Part shown: in pieces, positions 3,768 through 48,283 of the stretch
Numbering within the stretch: position 1 is the stretch's first letter
Layout of the letters: each line of letters opens with the position of its first letter
Sequence record: MH533020.1
Length of the DNA stretch: 64,000 nucleotides
Source of the DNA: Acinetobacter phage ABPH49
Reading direction: 5' to 3' (one strand)
Made by a program: the position numbers and the translations under genes
Notes under the pieces: model-generated
What the model saw: only the letters and a program-made list of their open reading frames with translations
Told to the model about the DNA's origin: nothing
The model's database searches: none

Positions 3768-3964
3768 TTCTTTATGAACTCCTTCTCTATCATATTCCCC
3801 AACAAGTAGCAAGTGACAAATACAGCAGCTATTCCAACGAACTTAATGAACATCCACAAGTTATTGTTTATTAGCCATGCGGCACTGATCATCAAAGCTG
3901 CAACGATCATGATCACAATGATAGCACACAACCCATAAAACATACGCTTTAGAAAATTAGACAT
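3764..3964 (-). CDS. Small membrane protein (66 aa, MSNFLKRMFYGLCAIIVIMIVAALMI...)
   Basis: GGAGG RBS 5 nt upstream of the ATG at 3964; two TM helices. The ORF-track N-terminal extension lacks an RBS. Confidence 0.6.
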   Translation of the reverse strand: MSNFLKRMFYGLCAIIVIMIVAALMISAAWLINNNLWMFIKFVGIAAVFVTCYLLGNMIEKEFIKK

Positions 3965-4005
3965 GAAAACCTCCAACATTTAGTAAAGATCCGTTATAAT
4001 TAGGA

Positions 4006-4044
4006 GATCAATAATGACGACCGGTTAGGGAGTTATTATTGATC
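4006..4044. promoter_or_regulatory. 10/11-bp inverted repeat GATCAATAATG ... TATTATTGATC separated by about 17 bp (candidate operator in the leader of the leftward operon)
   Basis: Seen directly in the sequence between the 4153-4533 gene and the small membrane-protein genes. Confidence 0.3.
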
Positions 4045-4152
4045 GAATAATTATCATGAGCGACCAGCGGGAGCGAGTGTTCTTATGTTAATACTTGTGT
4101 TCCTTTTTAAGAACACCACTCCACGCCGATCTTGTAGCTGTTGACTACAACA

Positions 4153-4533
4153 TCATCTCTCGAGACGCTTGGTGAACTTCCTCACCGCGTTGTCAACCTC
4201 CTCATCATCGGTACCGGCCTGCCAGTGGATAACGAGAAGTGATCCCAACTCTATCATCTCTCGGTCCACGTCGTCAAACCTTTCCGTCAACATTTGGATC
4301 AGATCCTTCTCACTGTCCTGAACGTCGTCTGGATAGGTGAAACTGTTGAACTTGACATACGTGTCTTCGAATCCATCACTGAACTTCCGCTCAATTTGGA
4401 AACCTTTCCCGTTGGCCGTGATGTTGTACACGATGCTTGACTCTTCCCCTGAGTCTGGGATATCCGTTACTGTGAAGATCCCGTACATCCCTGTACGAAC
4501 GGCGATTGCTTCGCCAGATACGTTTCTTGCCAT
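4153..4533 (-). CDS. Hypothetical protein (126 aa)
   Basis: ORF with a GGAGA RBS. Confidence 0.6.
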   Translation of the reverse strand: MARNVSGEAIAVRTGMYGIFTVTDIPDSGEESSIVYNITANGKGFQIERKFSDGFEDTYVKFNSFTYPDDVQDSEKDLIQMLTERFDDVDREMIELGSLLVIHWQAGTDDEEVDNAVRKFTKRLER

Positions 4534-7906: not shown

Positions 7907-8102
7907 AGATGCTCTCCAAGTCTAACCACTGATCAAGACCAACAGCCTTTCCATCGGTCTTCCGGTATTTAGTAATCTTGCCAGTTGAGCACTGGACCGC
8001 ACTGACCCAGTATTTCTGACCCCCGTCCCGCAGTTGCTCTGACCAACCCCACCCGAGGGTGTTGCTGATCTTGCCTCTGTGAGTGAATTCTTTCTTAGCC
8101 AT
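7893..8102 (-). CDS. Hypothetical protein (69 aa, Trp/Gly-rich)
   Basis: ORF with a GGAGG RBS. Confidence 0.55.
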   Translation of the reverse strand: MAKKEFTHRGKISNTLGWGWSEQLRDGGQKYWVSAVQCSTGKITKYRKTDGKAVGLDQWLDLESIYESR

Positions 8103-8156
8103 TATTTACCTCCAGAACAACCCCAACTCCGCCGCAAGTTTGGCATGGGCCAACCT

Positions 8157-8447
8157 TCATGTCCGATTCATCATAGAAGAATCCTTGGTGGCACCCATTT
8201 CCCCGGCAAACATGGGCTTTAGCTTTTTTCGTTGCCGGATGATCCAGAATCCACTGTGACCACCTTTCCCAACCTCCTCGAGGTAACCTTTGGAGATCAG
8301 GCCTTCCGCCACCTTTCCGATTTTAACAGGTAACAGGCAGTCCCCGTCCCAATACTGGGTTTTTCGACGAGGACTGGCCTCTATCTCCCAGCCAAATACA
8401 ACAGCAGCTTGGAGGAAACTTGCCTCGCGTTTGTTAATCTTGCTCAT
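8157..8447 (-). CDS. Hypothetical protein, possible winged-helix fold (96 aa from the ATG at 8447)
   Basis: MSKINKREASFLQAAVVFGW...; 1-nt TGATG overlap with the HD gene stop. Confidence 0.45.
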   Translation of the reverse strand: MSKINKREASFLQAAVVFGWEIEASPRRKTQYWDGDCLLPVKIGKVAEGLISKGYLEEVGKGGHSGFWIIRQRKKLKPMFAGEMGATKDSSMMNRT

Positions 8448-11301: not shown

Positions 11302-11555
11302 AAAAGTTACTGATTCTGGTCACCGCCGTTCTGCTGTCTGGCTGCGATCCAACAACAAGGGACGTCAGTGGGACATTTGCAATCCCACAGGAGCTGAAGG
11401 ACAAAGGCTGTACAATGTACCGCATGAAGAATGAGTACGCAGAGGCTATTTATGTCCTGTACTGTCCGAATGCGAACACAACAACGCAGCTGCAAGCCAA
11501 GCATCCCGCAAACGGATCAGTCATCAATGGTGTGTATTATGAAGAAAACCATTAA
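11298..11555 (+). CDS. Predicted lipoprotein (85 aa; signal peptide with LLSGC lipobox)
   Basis: MKKLLILVTAVLLSGC...; GAGGAG RBS; ATGA overlap. Confidence 0.65.
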   Translation: MKKLLILVTAVLLSGCDPTTRDVSGTFAIPQELKDKGCTMYRMKNEYAEAIYVLYCPNANTTTQLQAKHPANGSVINGVYYEENH

Positions 11556-11760
11556 GTATGAGTACCGGATTGCCCGGTTTACGGTGTCTCTATATCCGAC
11601 CCCGAGAATGTCTTTCCGTATAGAGCGTCGCCGAACCGATAAGTACCTGTTTGTTTTCCCATACGCATGGGTGCCGGTGCGGCACAACGCATGGGTAACA
11701 ATCTCTGGTGTTGGGTGCTGCTTAGTCCCTCCCGAGGGGGGATTACTTTGCGGAGTATGA
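11539..11760 (+). CDS. Possible small basic protein (73 aa)
   Basis: In-frame part of the track ORF 11431-11760 beginning at an ATG that overlaps the previous gene's end. Weak RBS. Confidence 0.3.
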   Translation: MKKTIKYEYRIARFTVSLYPTPRMSFRIERRRTDKYLFVFPYAWVPVRHNAWVTISGVGCCLVPPEGGLLCGV

Positions 11761-11897
11761 AACTTTGGAGGAGGCCGTGGATTCTATTAAAAAGGCTCTT
11801 GACAAGCAGACGGATCCCGAGGTAACATTAACCTACTTTGACGCAGCCGGTAATAAAATCGGCTCTGAAAAAGAAGGAACTGACCTATATTAAGGCC

Positions 11898-19680: not shown

Positions 19681-20118
19681 ATGCGATTATGTGCCACTCT
19701 GTTGGCCTTTACACTGTCTTTGGCACCAGCTTTATCGTATGCCCAAGAGAGTGCAAAGAAACCCCATCAGCGCGTCATACACACGTGCAGCACTAAAGAC
19801 AACTCGACGTATGCCCTTGCCTGCAACATCTACAAGGAGGCCGAAGGAGAGGGTCTGGAGGGGCAAATGGCGATCGGTTTTGTGACGATCAACCGGGCGC
19901 AGCATGATAAGTTCCCGACGTCGGTCCGAAAAGTAGTTTACCAGCACAAACAATTCAGCTGGACAATCTACAAAAACGGGTATAAGATTCGTAATCAAGA
20001 GGTGTGGGAACAGAGCATTAAAATCTCTAAGTTCCTGATAAAGATAAGGAATATGCCGGTGCTGTATAATTACCTTGACAACACACATGGTTCCCTGTAC
20101 TTTCACACCACGCAATAA
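19681..20118 (+). CDS. Secreted SleB-like cell-wall hydrolase (signal peptide + Hydrolase_2 domain); endolysin candidate
   Basis: N-terminal signal peptide MRLCATLLAFTLSLAPALSYA. LACNIYKEAEGEGLEGQMAIGFVTINRAQ matches the SleB/CwlJ catalytic region. GGAGG RBS. Confidence 0.7.
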   Translation: MRLCATLLAFTLSLAPALSYAQESAKKPHQRVIHTCSTKDNSTYALACNIYKEAEGEGLEGQMAIGFVTINRAQHDKFPTSVRKVVYQHKQFSWTIYKNGYKIRNQEVWEQSIKISKFLIKIRNMPVLYNYLDNTHGSLYFHTTQ

Positions 20119-20194
20119 AGCCTTACTGGTCAAAGTCTTTTAAGAAGACAGTGGTGATCGGTAACCACCAGTTTTATAAACTAAAGGAGCCATC

Positions 20195-20437
20195 ATGAAA
20201 GGTCGTCTGTTCAAGTCCCTCAAGTCACTGCAAATCGTTGCAATCTTCCTTGCACCAATGGCGATTTGGATCTTCGTGGGACAGTTCGTCGCAGGGATGT
20301 TTTTCTCCGGCGTGTACGCTGAACACCCAAGCATCGTGCCGTTTATGTTCATGGCTGGGTTTGCAGTTGGACGCATCGCAGAGTTGGTAATGTGCGGCAT
20401 GGTGGAAGTATTCAAAAGAAAAGAGGGGATCGAGTGA
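20195..20437 (+). CDS. Small membrane protein (80 aa, 2 TM)
   Basis: AAGGAG RBS; hydrophobic helices. Confidence 0.55.
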   Translation: MKGRLFKSLKSLQIVAIFLAPMAIWIFVGQFVAGMFFSGVYAEHPSIVPFMFMAGFAVGRIAELVMCGMVEVFKRKEGIE

Positions 20438-33928: not shown

Positions 33929-34366
33929 ATGGAACATTATTTAGTTTCTCACAAAGACGGGTTCAAGGGTATTCAGGACATCATTACGATCTGCAACAAT
34001 GGCGACCTCCTTACCTATTCCAAAGAAACCCGGTGGGTGAAGTGTCACCTGTGGTCTGAAGATTACATTCGTGAGCACGGAGAGCGGATCTCCCGCTATT
34101 CGTTGAAAAGTTCAGGCATCACTCCGCCAGTCCGAGATTTTAAGGATCTGGCTTGGGAGTGGAATGAAGAGCGTCAAGAATACCATGCAGTTGCCCACAT
34201 TCAGGGCTATGTAGACCTGATTATCTTCCACGATGGGTCTGACTGGTGCCTGCATTACGAAGACCGGGACCCTAGTGAGCTAATCTTCAAAGGTGAGTTT
34301 TATCAGCTTCAAGATAAGGCCCAATCTCTTCACGAAGAGTCTTTGATGGCTGAATTCTTCGAATAA
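33929..34366 (+). CDS. Hypothetical protein (145 aa)
   Basis: GGGAGGGG RBS 5 nt before the ATG at 33929. Confidence 0.55.
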   Translation: MEHYLVSHKDGFKGIQDIITICNNGDLLTYSKETRWVKCHLWSEDYIREHGERISRYSLKSSGITPPVRDFKDLAWEWNEERQEYHAVAHIQGYVDLIIFHDGSDWCLHYEDRDPSELIFKGEFYQLQDKAQSLHEESLMAEFFE

Positions 34367-42614: not shown

Positions 42615-43295
42615 ATGTTATTTAATCGCAACGAAGTCGTATTTGGTCGCACCATCGAGAAGCCATCTCAGGATGACATCAAGAACACAATGGGCCTGTG
42701 GAACGCATCAGTCGAAGACGCCATCAAGTTTGGTGGGGACGTTACCAGAGCTGCCATTCAGGCCATGAACCTGCGTGGAGACTACAAGCACATTGTTGTC
42801 GATGTCAAAACCCACATGCTGATGCCCAACATGATCCCTGCGATCCCGGGCTGGCACACTGATGGCGTACCGCGCGGTGCAGACCTGAACCCGGCCAGTA
42901 AAGGTGACCCGAACATCTATGCACAGGAAACCATGCGTAGCCCTCGGTATCACCTTCTGGTCACCGGGGGCAACTGCCCAACTCGCTTCATCCGTGACCG
43001 CGATATCGAGATCGGTATCGAGAATGGTCATAACCCTAAGCTCTACTCTGACATCAGCGCTTATGTCAAGCTTCGCGAGGGCCGGGGTTGGTTTGATACC
43101 TACGACGCGCCGGACTCTCAGGTGGTCGAGTGGGATTGGTGGGAATTGCACACCGCACAGCGTGCCCGGGGTCATGGTTGGCGCTATCTGATCCGCGTAA
43201 CAGAGACGGACCACATTGCACCGCAAACGGATCTTCGTCAGGTACTTCGCACACAACAACAAGTCTACATGCCTACGGAGGTGTTCGGGTGGTAA
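42615..43295 (+). CDS. Putative 2OG-Fe(II) oxygenase / cupin-like protein (226 aa)
   Basis: PGWHTDG (HxD) with a distal His in HGWRY, consistent with the HxD...H iron-binding facial triad. Weak, motif-only call. GGGAG RBS before the ATG at 42615. Confidence 0.45.
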   Translation: MLFNRNEVVFGRTIEKPSQDDIKNTMGLWNASVEDAIKFGGDVTRAAIQAMNLRGDYKHIVVDVKTHMLMPNMIPAIPGWHTDGVPRGADLNPASKGDPNIYAQETMRSPRYHLLVTGGNCPTRFIRDRDIEIGIENGHNPKLYSDISAYVKLREGRGWFDTYDAPDSQVVEWDWWELHTAQRARGHGWRYLIRVTETDHIAPQTDLRQVLRTQQQVYMPTEVFGW

Positions 43296-43555
43296 AGGAA
43301 AAGTATGAAATACAAATGTTCGACATAGTCAGGATTATCTGTGTCGACGAACACGGGTTTATGCGGGACGTTGTTAAAACAGGTGTCCCGCTAGATGAAG
43401 ACCTCGTTGTCGTTGAGATTTACCACGACATCCGCTTCGGCTGGCGATATGTGGTAGGTGAAGGGTCTTATCCTTTTGACGTCTACGATGTTGGGGAGCG
43501 GGAGATTTACGAAGTTAATCATCCCCCGGAGGTATTCCATGTCGCAAAATACTAA
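43289..43555 (+). CDS. Hypothetical protein (88 aa; GTG start)
   Basis: GGAGG RBS 7 nt before the GTG at 43289. In-frame part of the track ORF 43130-43555. Confidence 0.4.
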   Translation: MVKEKYEIQMFDIVRIICVDEHGFMRDVVKTGVPLDEDLVVVEIYHDIRFGWRYVVGEGSYPFDVYDVGEREIYEVNHPPEVFHVAKY

Positions 43556-43868
43556 ACTGGAATCTCGGATCTTCATGATCCTTGCTGTTGCCGGAATGGC
43601 TGTGGCGGGAATGCTTTGGGCAGCTAAGGATGAACCGGAGAAGGTTTTTGAACCGCCGATCTTACCGGCTGAGATTTCAAGACTCTCTGAGATCTGTACC
43701 AAAAACGGCGCTTACTCAAGCTACCTGATTATCGAGAAGTCACAACCTCGAAAAGTCATGTGTAAGTTTGAGCGGCGCGTTAAATCGACCGACTCTTTGG
43801 GCGGTCAACACTGGAGTCGTGAGGTCTACACTTACGATGCTAAACAACTTGAGAAGGAGAAAGTATAA
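43539..43868 (+). CDS. N-terminally membrane-anchored protein (109 aa)
   Basis: GGAGG RBS 6 nt before the ATG at 43539; TM helix IFMILAVAGMAVAGMLWAA. Confidence 0.55.
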   Translation: MSQNTKLESRIFMILAVAGMAVAGMLWAAKDEPEKVFEPPILPAEISRLSEICTKNGAYSSYLIIEKSQPRKVMCKFERRVKSTDSLGGQHWSREVYTYDAKQLEKEKV

Positions 43869-44242
43869 TGCTGGAGATCACTGCACTCGTCGTGGTGTTC
43901 CTCGTAATCCTGTTCGCAGCGATTGCGGGTACACCGGCGGTTATCGCCAAGAAGCGTAAGCACCGCCAGTTCCCGGCCATTGTGGCTGTCTGCGTGGTGG
44001 CTTACATCTTCGTAATCTTCAACCTTCAGATCGCGGGCATCTTGTGGCTCGCCGCGCTGATTTGGTCACTGACAACACCGTCCACTGTGATTCAGGGTCC
44101 TAAGGGTGAGCAAGGCCCTCAGGGGTTCATGGGCCAGAAAGGTGATAAGGGTGACCCGGGAAAAGATGCAATCCCGATGTCAAAAGCCGGGAACCTGTAC
44201 ACCAGTCTTCACAACGGGGGCAATGTCAACGTCAATGGCTGA
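43868..44242 (+). CDS. Membrane protein with a collagen-like Gly-X-Y tract (124 aa)
   Basis: Two or three TM helices followed by GPKGEQGPQGFMGQKGDKGDPGKD (seven GXY triplets). AAGGAGAAAG RBS. Confidence 0.6.
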   Translation: MLEITALVVVFLVILFAAIAGTPAVIAKKRKHRQFPAIVAVCVVAYIFVIFNLQIAGILWLAALIWSLTTPSTVIQGPKGEQGPQGFMGQKGDKGDPGKDAIPMSKAGNLYTSLHNGGNVNVNG

Positions 44243-44318
44243 ATTAAAAGAGAAAGGGTCCGTACTGACGTATTACGAACGTGAAGGTTTTTCGAAGCAA
44301 CCGGAGGTAAAGAAATAA

Positions 44319-44498
44319 ATGAGAAAACTGCGTGATTTTAAGTGCCCACAAGGACACGAATTCGAAGCATTGGTTAACGATGACGTGCTGAGCATGTTGT
44401 GTCGTCAGTGTTCGGATCTGGCACACCGTCAGGTATCTGCACCGGCGGGATCTGGTAACGCAGCTCACGGTTTCATGGCTAAAGCGAGGGAGCGTTGA
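44319..44498 (+). CDS. Small zinc-ribbon protein (59 aa, MRKLRDFKCPQGHEF...CRQC)
   Basis: Not in the ORF track. GGAGG upstream; CPxG...CRQC Cys pairs. Confidence 0.45.
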   Translation: MRKLRDFKCPQGHEFEALVNDDVLSMLCRQCSDLAHRQVSAPAGSGNAAHGFMAKARER

Positions 44499-44712
44499 TG
44501 AATGAAGGGCTGAGAGATTTGTTCGAGGAAGCGGTCATGGAGAAAATCAATATCTCCAAAAAGACCCTCGTCGGGATGCGTACCAACTCGGGTACAGAAA
44601 CTCCACCATCTCGGGGATTGACTACAACCTGATGTGGGAGATGTGGCTGAGCGGCCACATGGCTGCTTGGCGAGAGGTTGATGCACTGGTAAAACGTGGG
44701 AAAGGACAATGA
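44498..44712 (+). CDS. Gene split by an apparent -1 frameshift at the CCAAAAAG run at about 44557-44563 (frame-A 44 aa + frame -1 continuation of about 50 aa)
   Basis: The start is coupled to the upstream stop (TGATG). The -1 frame stays open to a TGA that overlaps the next gene's ATG (ATGA). One extra A in the A5 run would give a single 71-aa ORF. Confidence 0.45.
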
Positions 44713-45248: not shown

Positions 45249-45614
45249 ATGGCTAAGTCAGATTTCATCGAAGGCATGATGTTGGATTGCGGTTTTGACT
45301 GCGTTTCTGCGGAAAAGCATATCTCGGTTAGCGAAGAGTACAAGTACGTCATGGTGAATCTCGAGTTCATCGACTCTTCGAAACGGGCATTCAAGGTCAG
45401 CTCTTCGTATGTCGTTAACCGTGGTGGCAAGATCTCCATGCAGGAGTCAGCCAAGGTTGCCGCACAATACCTCAACGACGGCAAGGTGATCAACCGTGAG
45501 CGGATCGTGGCGTACAACGAAGCAGAGTTCACTGAAGAGCTGCTCAATGCAATCAACGACATCAACGAGCTGTTCGAGCAGGCAGACGTTGAAGGGAAAA
45601 AGGTGTACATGTGA
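45249..45614 (+). CDS. Hypothetical protein (121 aa)
   Basis: AGGAGG RBS 8 nt before the ATG at 45249. Confidence 0.6.
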   Translation: MAKSDFIEGMMLDCGFDCVSAEKHISVSEEYKYVMVNLEFIDSSKRAFKVSSSYVVNRGGKISMQESAKVAAQYLNDGKVINRERIVAYNEAEFTEELLNAINDINELFEQADVEGKKVYM

Positions 45615-46095
45615 AGCAGTACGACATCAAGGGTTGGATAAAAAACGCCGGGGGCCTAAGAATCCCTCACGGATTCATCAAGGGTGAGTTGGTTGATGTA
45701 ATTCACCGAGATGGTGAGGTGTTTTATAGTCTACCGGTCGGAAATAGCTCTGCTACAGACTTCAAACATTGGTCGCGACATAGCGGTGCAGATGTTATTT
45801 ATTTCAGGAAGTCATGTGGAGAGTCAGCAGGAAAAGAGAAAGTCTTTTTCGGGAAGCCGTTGCTGGAAGCATCGAAGGAGTTATCGCAGAGGGTATTGAA
45901 CCGGCGGATAAGGAGAGTAAAGAGGTGGATCACACAGAACTGCATGTGGATAGTCGTACATTCCACGGCCTTATTGAGGCTATCTCTCGAGATAAACCAA
46001 ACACGTGGTCGTTCAATGCGGGCGGAAAATCACGCCCATATCGGACACTGACCATCGGGAACACCATCTTCATCGAATTAACGGAGGAAAAATAA
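45611..46095 (+). CDS. Gene split by an apparent -1 frameshift at the CTTTTTC run at about 45844-45850 (track ORFs 45611-46051 and 45814-46095)
   Basis: The upstream frame reads protein-like up to ...KEKVFF, then the -1 frame reads protein-like (...REAVAGSIEGVIAEGIEPADKE...) to a TAA overlapping the next ATG. One extra T merges them into about 161 aa. GTG start with GTGA overlap. Confidence 0.45.
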
Positions 46096-46304
46096 TGGCT
46101 AAGAAGACTTACTCAGTGACCGGTAAAGCAGCAGGCGGTGGTTGTCTGGCACTGACCCTGTTCATGATCACCATGTTCGCGGCGTGGGTTACCCACATCG
46201 TAACCTGCTTCAAGACCGATGCGTGGGGCTTCCTGATCGCCGGTGCCATTGCTGCACCAATTGGTGTGATTCACGGTATTGGCATTTGGTTCGGCGTGTG
46301 GTAA
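46095..46304 (+). CDS. Small membrane protein (69 aa, 2 TM)
   Basis: GGAGG RBS; TAATG overlap. Confidence 0.55.
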   Translation: MAKKTYSVTGKAAGGGCLALTLFMITMFAAWVTHIVTCFKTDAWGFLIAGAIAAPIGVIHGIGIWFGVW

Positions 46305-46349: not shown

Positions 46350-46571
46350 ATGGTGCAGTTGTACGTGGCAGTGGACACCCTGAAAGAACCACCTGAGGTG
46401 ATGACCCCGCCAATGACGCTGATCGAAACGGAAGTCGCAATCCAGAAGATGATCGCGGACCCTATGAACGGGATCACGATCTTCCCTGACGATGAAGGCG
46501 TGTACCACGGGGATTACATGGGGAACACGGTGGCGCTGAAGCCTGTCCCTTATGAACCCGAAGAGCAGTAA
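46350..46571 (+). CDS. Hypothetical acidic protein (73 aa)
   Basis: AAGGAGAAAG RBS. Confidence 0.55.
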   Translation: MVQLYVAVDTLKEPPEVMTPPMTLIETEVAIQKMIADPMNGITIFPDDEGVYHGDYMGNTVALKPVPYEPEEQ

Positions 46572-46626: not shown

Positions 46627-47868
46627 ATGTCAGTAATTACAATGGTAACCGACCCCGCAACCGACAAACAGATCCCTAAAGCAAAAGGCATCATCAAGCG
46701 TATCAACATCAAACAGATCAACGCGGATGGTTCCCCACGCATCACCAACATCAACAAAGGTCCTAACGCCGGTAAGACCATCAAGGCTACCCACCGTTAT
46801 TCGATCCTGTTGGAAGTTGGCGAAGACGCGGTCTGGCTCTCGTTCGGCGAAGGTGAGGTTAAAAACCCGAAATACGCTGACCAGTTCCAAATCAAAGTCG
46901 GCGACCAGTACAAAAACCTTCTGGCGGGCATGGAAATATCGGTGTACCCGGTTCAAGAGAACAAGTGGATGAAGGACGGCGTTGAGCAGACTTCATGGCA
47001 GGCGAAGAAGAAGAACATCAATCTTCTGGATGAGTCCGGTGCTCAGCAACCGACTCAGCAACAGTCCTCCGGTGGCGCAGCTATCCCAGCTGGCGGAACC
47101 AAGATCTTCGGCGAAGTTATCTCGATCGATAACGGCGTTGCTCAGGTCAAGACCGAGAACGGTCTGGTTGGTCCGGTAGTTCTGGGCAGCAATACCGTAA
47201 CCGTTGGTGGCCGTCTGGCAGCGATCGTTGATGCAAGTGGTAACATCCTGTCCGGCTTCAAGGCTTATGGCCCAGCTGGTCAAGGTGGTGGCGCATCGGG
47301 TGGTAAGTCTGCGGGTTCCTTCAAGAAGGATAACTCAGGCGTTGAAACCGGCCATGCGATCAATGGCGCTCTGAACCTGAAGCGTAATGGTCACAAGCTT
47401 GAAGTTCTGGATCTGGCGAAGATCGTTCATGATACCACTGTTGCACTGAAGGCATCTGAACGTGCACGTGACGAGAACAAGGGTGTGTCTGATTACGATA
47501 TCGGCGCAGCTGTTGGTCACGCGGTGTTGAACGCAACCCGCGACGTGAAGCCACAAGATGGTCTGGCTGAAGCTCTGACTACCTACGCACAGGGTCTGTT
47601 GTCTCGAGTAGTACCAGAGATCACAGCCTACGTGAAGGCTGGTGGTGCAGAAGGTATCAAAGCTGCCGAAGCAGAAGCCGCAGCTAAGGCTAAAGCAGAG
47701 CAGGAGGCCGCAGCAGCTGCCGCTCAGCAAGCTTCACAGCCGGTGCAGCAACCTGTTCAGCAGCAACAGTCGATCGATATGTCACCACCACCAATGGATT
47801 TCGACGATGACATTCCGTTTGCTCCGATCGGGTTGCAGTATGCACGACATGCAATCCACGCCATCTAA
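46627..47868 (+). CDS. SSB-like protein: N-terminal OB-fold-like domain, Gly/Gln-rich linkers, Ala/Gln-rich tail carrying an internal E. coli-type SSB-Ct motif ...PPPMDFDDDIPF followed by 15 extra residues
   Basis: MDFDDDIPF is identical to the last nine residues of E. coli SSB. G/Q-rich low-complexity linkers are typical of SSBs. AAGGAGA RBS. Confidence 0.7.
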   Translation: MSVITMVTDPATDKQIPKAKGIIKRINIKQINADGSPRITNINKGPNAGKTIKATHRYSILLEVGEDAVWLSFGEGEVKNPKYADQFQIKVGDQYKNLLAGMEISVYPVQENKWMKDGVEQTSWQAKKKNINLLDESGAQQPTQQQSSGGAAIPAGGTKIFGEVISIDNGVAQVKTENGLVGPVVLGSNTVTVGGRLAAIVDASGNILSGFKAYGPAGQGGGASGGKSAGSFKKDNSGVETGHAINGALNLKRNGHKLEVLDLAKIVHDTTVALKASERARDENKGVSDYDIGAAVGHAVLNATRDVKPQDGLAEALTTYAQGLLSRVVPEITAYVKAGGAEGIKAAEAEAAAKAKAEQEAAAAAAQQASQPVQQPVQQQQSIDMSPPPMDFDDDIPFAPIGLQYARHAIHAI

Positions 47869-48283
47869 GGTGTGTTTCAAGTGTGGGGTGTTAAAGCCCC
47901 TCACTGATTTCTACAAACACCCTAAAATGTCCGACGGAAGAGTCAATAAGTGTAAGTGCTGCAACAAAAAGGATGTTTCTGATAACCGAAGTGATAAGCT
48001 TGAAAAGTATAGGGCTTATGACCGAGATCGTGGGAACAGACAAAGTGATACCTACATCGGGAAGTACAGGAAAGAGTTCCCCAAGAAATACAAGGCACAC
48101 AATGCGGTTAACAATGCGTTACGTGATGGCAGAATAACCAAAGGCCCGTGTGAAATATGCGGCGCTGAGAAGTCGGTAGGTCACCATGACGATTACGACA
48201 AACCGTTGGAGGTAAGGTGGTTGTGTCAAGGTCATCACAAACAGTGGCACGCAGAACATGGCGAAGCACTTAACGCCAGATAA
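47840..48283 (+). CDS. HNH homing endonuclease (paralog of the 25798-26277 gene), overlapping the SSB-like gene 3' end
   Basis: CFKCGVLKPLTDFY...CKCC zinc ribbon. EICGAEKSVGHHDDYDKPLEVRWLCQGHHKQWHAEH HNH motif. The 5' end is about 75% nucleotide-identical to the first HNH gene. Start codon uncertain. Confidence 0.7.
   Translation: MHDMQSTPSKVCFKCGVLKPLTDFYKHPKMSDGRVNKCKCCNKKDVSDNRSDKLEKYRAYDRDRGNRQSDTYIGKYRKEFPKKYKAHNAVNNALRDGRITKGPCEICGAEKSVGHHDDYDKPLEVRWLCQGHHKQWHAEHGEALNAR

Follow-up and report, generated by a model that had tools for sequence, protein, structure and literature searches.

Gene layout at 45611–46095

Two overlapping ORFs on the + strand occupy positions 45611–46095 of the window, by which we mean the whole stretch of 64,000 nucleotides of Acinetobacter phage ABPH49 that was analysed. 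ORF A (45611–46051) starts with GTG and encodes 146 aa. ORF B (45814–46095) starts with ATG, encodes 93 aa, and lies in the frame one base back from that of ORF A. The two ORFs, their −1 frame relation, and a fused length of 161 aa had been described in the initial annotation, and all are confirmed here: the window has 485 nt at this place, and restoring one base gives 486 nt, i.e., 161 aa and a stop. The overlap between the fused stop and the next ATG, also described there, is equally real (TAA at 46093–46095, ATG at 46095–46097). At the other end, the GTG at 45611 overlaps the TGA of the upstream gene. The surroundings consist of short, densely packed genes on the same strand, with overlapping starts and stops, a packing typical of phage early regions. 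The upstream neighbour is a DUF7325 gene (45249–45614; exact protein match to AXN57954.1), and a 413-aa ORF is found downstream (46627–47868; exact protein match to AXN57958.1).

The N-terminal part of the gene is read in frame A (45611–45870, + strand), from the GTG through codons 1–86 and two bases of Ala87. A C is missing beside C45870 (45870/45871, + strand), which turns the GCC of Ala87 into GC-, followed by ATC. The C-terminal part is read in frame B (45871–46095, + strand); it comprises codons 88–161 and the TAA, and includes the highly conserved TELHVDSRTFHGLIEAISRDKPNTWSFNAGG domain. Past residue 87, ORF A continues out of frame for 59 nonsense codons and a TGA (45872–46051, + strand), and protein alignment gives this tail similarity to no orthologue. 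ORF B opens with an out-of-frame ATG inside the gene, preceded by AGGA at a distance of 4 nt, and its first 19 residues are out of frame. The run of five Ts at 45845–45849 (+ strand) belongs to two native Phe codons, TTT TTC, and the lesion lies elsewhere.

In GenBank, ORF B is AXN57955.1 (93 aa, exact match), and this fragment has spread into UniProt/BFVD as a separate entry. AXN57954.1, the DUF7325 gene, is consecutive with AXN57955.1, so that ORF A is presumably unannotated. An exact protein look-up of ORF A gave no match; its GTG start may have been read there as V instead of M.

Orthologues and position of the lesion

The window is ~97–98% identical to Serratia phage vB_SmaM-Kashira (blocks of 93–99%, with some mosaic gaps), already noted as the closest relative of ABPH49 (accession MH533020; PMC11126041; PMC8878043). 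A megablast of the locus against a phage collection retrieved Kashira (98.5% over 3 kb) and vB_SmaM-ChuuTotoro (81%), both Vequintavirinae. The record bears the name of an Acinetobacter phage, yet its near-identity is to a phage of Serratia marcescens, and its metagenome relatives are of the same type; the receptor and host specificity of ABPH49 have been questioned (PMC11126041).

We observed some further differences between the window and its relatives. At 44235–44318, a ~273-nt in-frame deletion removes most of the homologue of the 118-aa KASHIRA_00290 and leaves a 27-codon remnant (MAELKEKGSVLTYYEREGFSKQPEVKK); it appears to fall between two short ...YY repeats. At 46563, the window lacks 12 nt of Kashira, in frame, at a short direct repeat (GAGCAGGAAGTT GAGCAG) in the 3' end of a 73-aa gene. 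An insertion of ~400 nt relative to Kashira (47843–48283) carries a Cys/His-rich ORF (CxxC...CxxC...HH...H) that by eye looks like an HNH-type homing endonuclease; Pfam gave no match for it at E 0.01 or below, and at the position of the insertion the related contig L008 carries a gene for a 147-aa protein. In the segment 1065–1290, two intergenic copies of the motif AAAAATTTTTCGCCCTC, near 1077 and 1210, precede a T-run at 1276. The A/T runs there are unlike those of Kashira in length, and the repeats may be promoter or terminator elements.

When the window was searched with the 161-aa KASHIRA_00350 protein (tblastn), residues 1–87 matched 45611–45871 (100% identity, E 4e-57) and residues 75–161 matched 45832–46092 in the frame one base back (E 1e-46), which bears out the initial impression that each ORF is protein-like only in part. 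At the corresponding locus, Kashira has a single 486-nt CDS, KASHIRA_00350 (URC22629.1, hypothetical protein), and ChuuTotoro has a single 156-aa CDS, the orthologue CHUUTOTORO_02870. A single ORF of 156–161 codons, among neighbours arranged in a conserved order (DUF7325 gene, the orthologue, then genes for 69 aa, 75 aa, and 413 aa), is present in all nine related loci, i.e., Kashira, ChuuTotoro, and seven metagenome-assembled loci (Logan contigs), one of which is Kashira itself. Four of the Logan loci (ERR13731096, SRR29074712, SRR28250427, and SRR14573573) have single ORFs of 156–160 aa and keep the gene order: the DUF7325 gene, the orthologue of the 161-aa gene, and small downstream genes. 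The latter encode 69 aa and 75 aa in three of the four loci, and a gene of 402–413 aa follows where the contig extends. Three further Logan contigs, including L012 and L013, encode the exact intact 161-aa protein. The window gene and KASHIRA_00350 are alike in their neighbours and in the overlaps of their starts and stops, and their DNA is identical over 485 nt; the window gene differs from KASHIRA_00350 in being one C short in codon 87, which splits the ORF. By these alignments, the ORFs at 45611–46051 and 45814–46095 are the two halves of one gene, the orthologue of KASHIRA_00350.

Across the whole gene, the DNA alignment shows the window to depart from Kashira solely at 45870/45871, where it reads GGAAG-CATCG and Kashira GGAAGCCATCG; the single-C form at the lesion is GAAGCATC and the CC form is GAAGCCATC. 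In an alignment of seven sequences, the gap falls in an Ala codon (GCC, GCT, or GCA) in six out of six orthologue DNAs. The missing C is 21–22 nt downstream of the T5 run, where the initial annotation had placed the switch between frames. That run has the same length in the intact Kashira and in the intact ERR13731096, and the lesion is a reduction of CC to C instead of the proposed change in a 5-mer homopolymer preceded by C. Among six intact genes, the T-run reads TTT TTC in three and TTC TTT in one (SRR29074712), and is replaced by other sequence in two (ChuuTotoro included). The junction consensus of the orthologues, FFGK-x-[LI]-[I/L]-x-A-IEG, follows frame A to Ala87 and frame B from Ile88. 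The correct junction is ...VFFGKPLLEA/IEGV..., and five other orthologues agree with it. We rejected an insertion in the T5 run as the repair, since T5 is retained in intact orthologues, which stay in frame A for another 7 codons. The junction first proposed, ...VFF/REAVAGS/IEGV..., has 7 wrong residues (REAVAGS for GKPLLEA).

The intact gene would encode a two-domain early-region protein of unassigned function. The 161-aa protein has no match above cutoff in Pfam and none in PHROGs or PADLOC; its best match in a sequence search of the PDB has an E of 0.57, and Foldseek found no match to its model in the PDB at E 0.001 or below. This AlphaFold2 model, built from six orthologues and of moderate confidence (pLDDT 68), suggests an N-terminal beta-rich domain, a helix at 82–95 that would hold the lesion, and also a disordered linker and, at the C-terminal end, a conserved alpha/beta domain. 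The top Foldseek match in BFVD is A0A346FJ00 (93 aa, 92% identity), which appears to be the ABPH49 fragment itself. The other BFVD matches are small uncharacterised proteins of other phages, several of them Vequintavirinae-type. Among the latter, the stand-alone proteins Pectobacterium phiTE K9L3Q4 (62 aa), Salmonella PVPSE1 gp238 (51 aa), and SSE121 K4I3J1 (77 aa) are structurally like one domain of the 161-aa protein, as far as its low-confidence model allows. The family is very narrow, comprising three GenBank phages and a few metagenome contigs; in the phage collection, tblastn retrieved Kashira and ChuuTotoro only, and a scan of IMG/VR found no relatives.

Private loss of the C and its possible origins

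Two of the contigs that encode the intact protein are closer to the window than Kashira is. Between L012 (SRR34880699) and the window there are 2 substitutions and the one gap in 1601 nt, whereas 14 substitutions separate L012 from Kashira. Thirteen of the 14 flank SNPs that distinguish ABPH49 from Kashira are of ABPH49 type in L012, as are all seven of those covered by L013 (SRR19221883), and both contigs retain the C. The loss therefore occurred on, or is restricted to, the terminal branch that ends in the ABPH49 deposit. The comparison of these genomes and contigs shows the loss to be private to the MH533020 record. A lesion confined to one record, with close relatives of the same haplotype intact, is the pattern expected of an error; a conserved frame disrupted by a lesion, with intact orthologues, is also that of a pseudogene. 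We found no secondary decay (extra substitutions, stops, or indels) across the 485 nt relative to Kashira. If the mutation is real, it would thus be very recent, given that nothing else in these 485 nt differs from Kashira.

We catalogued all the indels that distinguish the window from Kashira and, for those in coding DNA, used ChuuTotoro as the outgroup to polarise them. Besides the change of CC to C at 45870 in the KASHIRA_00350 orthologue, the window has four further frameshifts relative to its relatives, each of them a one-base length change in a G/C run. At 8235, a change of CCC to CC splits the homologue of the 117-aa KASHIRA_02410 (8098–8447, − strand); there is no ChuuTotoro homologue at this site, so its polarity is not assignable. 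At 11736, a change of G5 to G6 splits the homologue of the 121-aa KASHIRA_02480 (11527–11893). This change is private to the window relative to Kashira and to contig L017 (SRR19221883), as is an intergenic change of C4 to C3 at 9889. At 20112, a change of GG to G displaces the last 28 residues of a predicted cell-wall hydrolase (19681–20198), which is intact (172 aa) in Kashira and ChuuTotoro and whose Kashira orthologue matches PF07486 (Hydrolase_2); the contig found for this site is Kashira-type and uninformative. At 44587, a change of CC to C (ACCAA-CTCGG) affects the homologue of the 71-aa KASHIRA_00310 at a companion locus (44498–44712, + strand), 24 nt downstream of an intact A5 run (44559–44563). 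The companion gene is in a single frame in both Kashira and ChuuTotoro, and its 44-aa N-terminal stub in the window (44498–44632) is AXN57952.1 in GenBank (exact protein match). Kashira and ChuuTotoro are both intact at 11736, 20112, and 44587. Among these other frameshift sites, only 11736 could be polarised with ABPH49-type contigs, and look-ups for further contigs of this type with the 59-aa and 69-aa neighbour proteins found no record.

The initial annotation had regarded the locus studied here as a second event like the one at 44498. The two are indeed of the same kind, both being reductions of CC to C, but neither lies at its T5 or A5 run; the lesions are 21–24 nt downstream. The accompanying proposal of a systematic under-calling of homopolymers is not borne out by a census of A5/T5 runs: 87 of the 90 runs that could be aligned to Kashira are equal in length, so that 5-mers are not systematically under-called, and the three exceptions include no window-private gene-breaking frameshift. 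An assembly or base-calling error is still the leading explanation, although not through A5/T5 under-calling. In Kashira itself, KASHIRA_00080 and KASHIRA_00090 overlap by 59 nt (Kashira 3847–4285), with CCCC where the window has CCC; their homologue is in one frame in the window (33929–34366) and in ChuuTotoro (02620, 146 aa), and Kashira looks like the frameshifted genome at this place. The region at 43289–43868 also differs from Kashira, by +T at 43522 and −A at 43701, and has two overlapping ORFs against KASHIRA_00270. Its C-terminus is 55 aa longer than that of KASHIRA_00270, and ChuuTotoro matches the middle segment only.

We somewhat favour a consensus or base-calling error as the origin of the lost C. 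A one-base under-call of a short G/C run would have dropped the C of Ala87; the phage would then encode the intact 161-aa protein, and the annotation of the 93-aa ORF B in GenBank would be an artefact. This preference follows from the absence of the lesion in L012 and L013, which have the same haplotype, together with the further one-base changes in G/C runs of the window, and we also count the lack of any other change in the broken gene in favour of error. A close third sequence allows changes to be polarised over ~3.8 kb; there, the window-private branch has 8 substitutions and 3 run-length indels (45870, 11736, and the intergenic 9889), a ratio that is unusually high for real evolution, albeit from small counts.

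A genuine and very recent mutation is a quite possible alternative, though not the reading we prefer. It would be a loss of function or a gene fission in a dispensable accessory gene of the ABPH49 isolate, and the other four frameshifts would be similar real losses in the lineage or in the laboratory stock. Their distribution fits this explanation: the five lesions are all in small accessory genes and none is in the ~28 kb of large replication and structural genes, an avoidance that we estimate to have a chance of ~0.06 under uniform errors and that is expected of real mutations filtered by selection. Similarly, one-base indels between the window and Kashira are ~40-fold denser in intergenic than in coding DNA, as expected if most of them are real and filtered by selection. 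The comparable frameshifted pair KASHIRA_00080/00090 indicates that such lesions arise in other genomes too, and the window has undergone unquestionably real changes in gene content, namely the 273-nt in-frame deletion in the KASHIRA_00290 homologue and the 12-nt deletion at 46563. ORF B, moreover, has its own ATG with AGGA upstream, and the small stand-alone proteins of related phages are structurally like one domain in the low-confidence model. Against a real mutation stand the absence of further decay in the broken gene, the high ratio of run-length indels to substitutions on the private branch, and the shortness of this branch (2 substitutions per 1.6 kb relative to L012), on which a neutral indel in a 485-nt gene would be expected with a probability of ~0.05 by our estimate. 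If the base is truly absent, the phage would produce an 87-residue N-terminal fragment with a 59-residue nonsense tail and, at best, also the C-terminal domain on its own, from the internal ATG at 45814.

Error and recent mutation are both ordinary explanations. A one-base lesion of this sort in a hypothetical phage gene is unremarkable, and the finding is mainly of interest for curation. The 64-kb stretch contains at least four more genes that are split likewise, the predicted cell-wall hydrolase included. Comparative genomics or counts of 'unique proteins' based on MH533020 would inherit these artefacts.

Recoding, independent genes, and comparison with known systems

The remaining explanations have far lower probability. 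It is very unlikely that the C is truly absent and that the split gene is used either through low-efficiency spontaneous −1 slippage within 45784–45870 or as a nascent fission that expresses the C-terminal domain from the ATG at 45814. Slippage could involve, for example, the re-pairing of the A site from UUC to UUU at C UUU UUC and would give some full-length protein; the product of a real and rescued deletion would contain ...FFGKPLLEA/IEGV... or ...VFFREAVAGSIEGV....

Less probable still is that programmed −1 frameshifting or transcriptional slippage at CTTTTTC makes the full-length protein, the sequence being a recurring slippery motif, as the initial annotation had offered as an alternative. 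The −1 frame relation agrees with this possibility, and the A-site re-pairing is physically possible. However, Kashira has the identical T-run without needing a shift; the run reads TTC TTT in another intact orthologue and is absent in two more; frame A is followed for 7 further codons past the run in orthologues; no relative among the nine loci shares the split; and the companion locus has a private loss from CC to C away from its A5 run. A −1 fusion could only occur at 45784–46048, a zone delimited by the last stop of frame B (45781) and the stop of frame A (46049). This zone has no X XXY YYZ heptamer, the T-run reading C TTT TTC, and the only canonical heptamer of the gene (45640) is upstream of the frame-B stops. 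We found no sign of a stimulatory RNA structure at 45851–45940: the minimum free energy of these 90 nt downstream of the T-run is −15.1 kcal/mol, for a mean of −15.2 among dinucleotide shuffles (z = 0.03). Efficient transcriptional slippage is known from A or T runs of about 8–9 or more, and the T5 run, the longest in the overlap zone, is far shorter. The nine related loci conserve neither a two-ORF layout nor a slip site, and the T-run is not kept as a run. With both the heptamer scan and the RNA fold against shuffles being negative, programmed frameshifting is not supported, and nothing here indicates new recoding biology.

The least credible reading of all treats ORF A and ORF B as independent genes that overlap, a view that might be drawn from GenBank, where the 93-aa ORF B is listed as a gene. 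The orthologue alignment refutes it: the gene is a single uninterrupted ORF in every orthologue, and neither the N-terminal 19 residues of ORF B nor the 59 residues that end ORF A have a counterpart in any homologue.

Overlapping ORFs in −1 relation, with a T-rich run in the overlap, are also found in dnaX of E. coli and in the tail-chaperone G/GT genes of phages. Unlike these systems, the locus has no heptamer, stimulatory structure, or conserved split, and its ancestral junction lies off the run. Further parallels are the consensus errors of flow-based or long-read sequencing and the frameshifted pseudogenes of phages, with which the locus has in common a private one-base change in the length of a short G/C run within an otherwise identical gene, and several similar lesions within the one record. 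The change of CC to C differs from the classical error at long homopolymers; the runs concerned here are mostly of 2–3 bases, and the A5/T5 runs of the window are unaffected.
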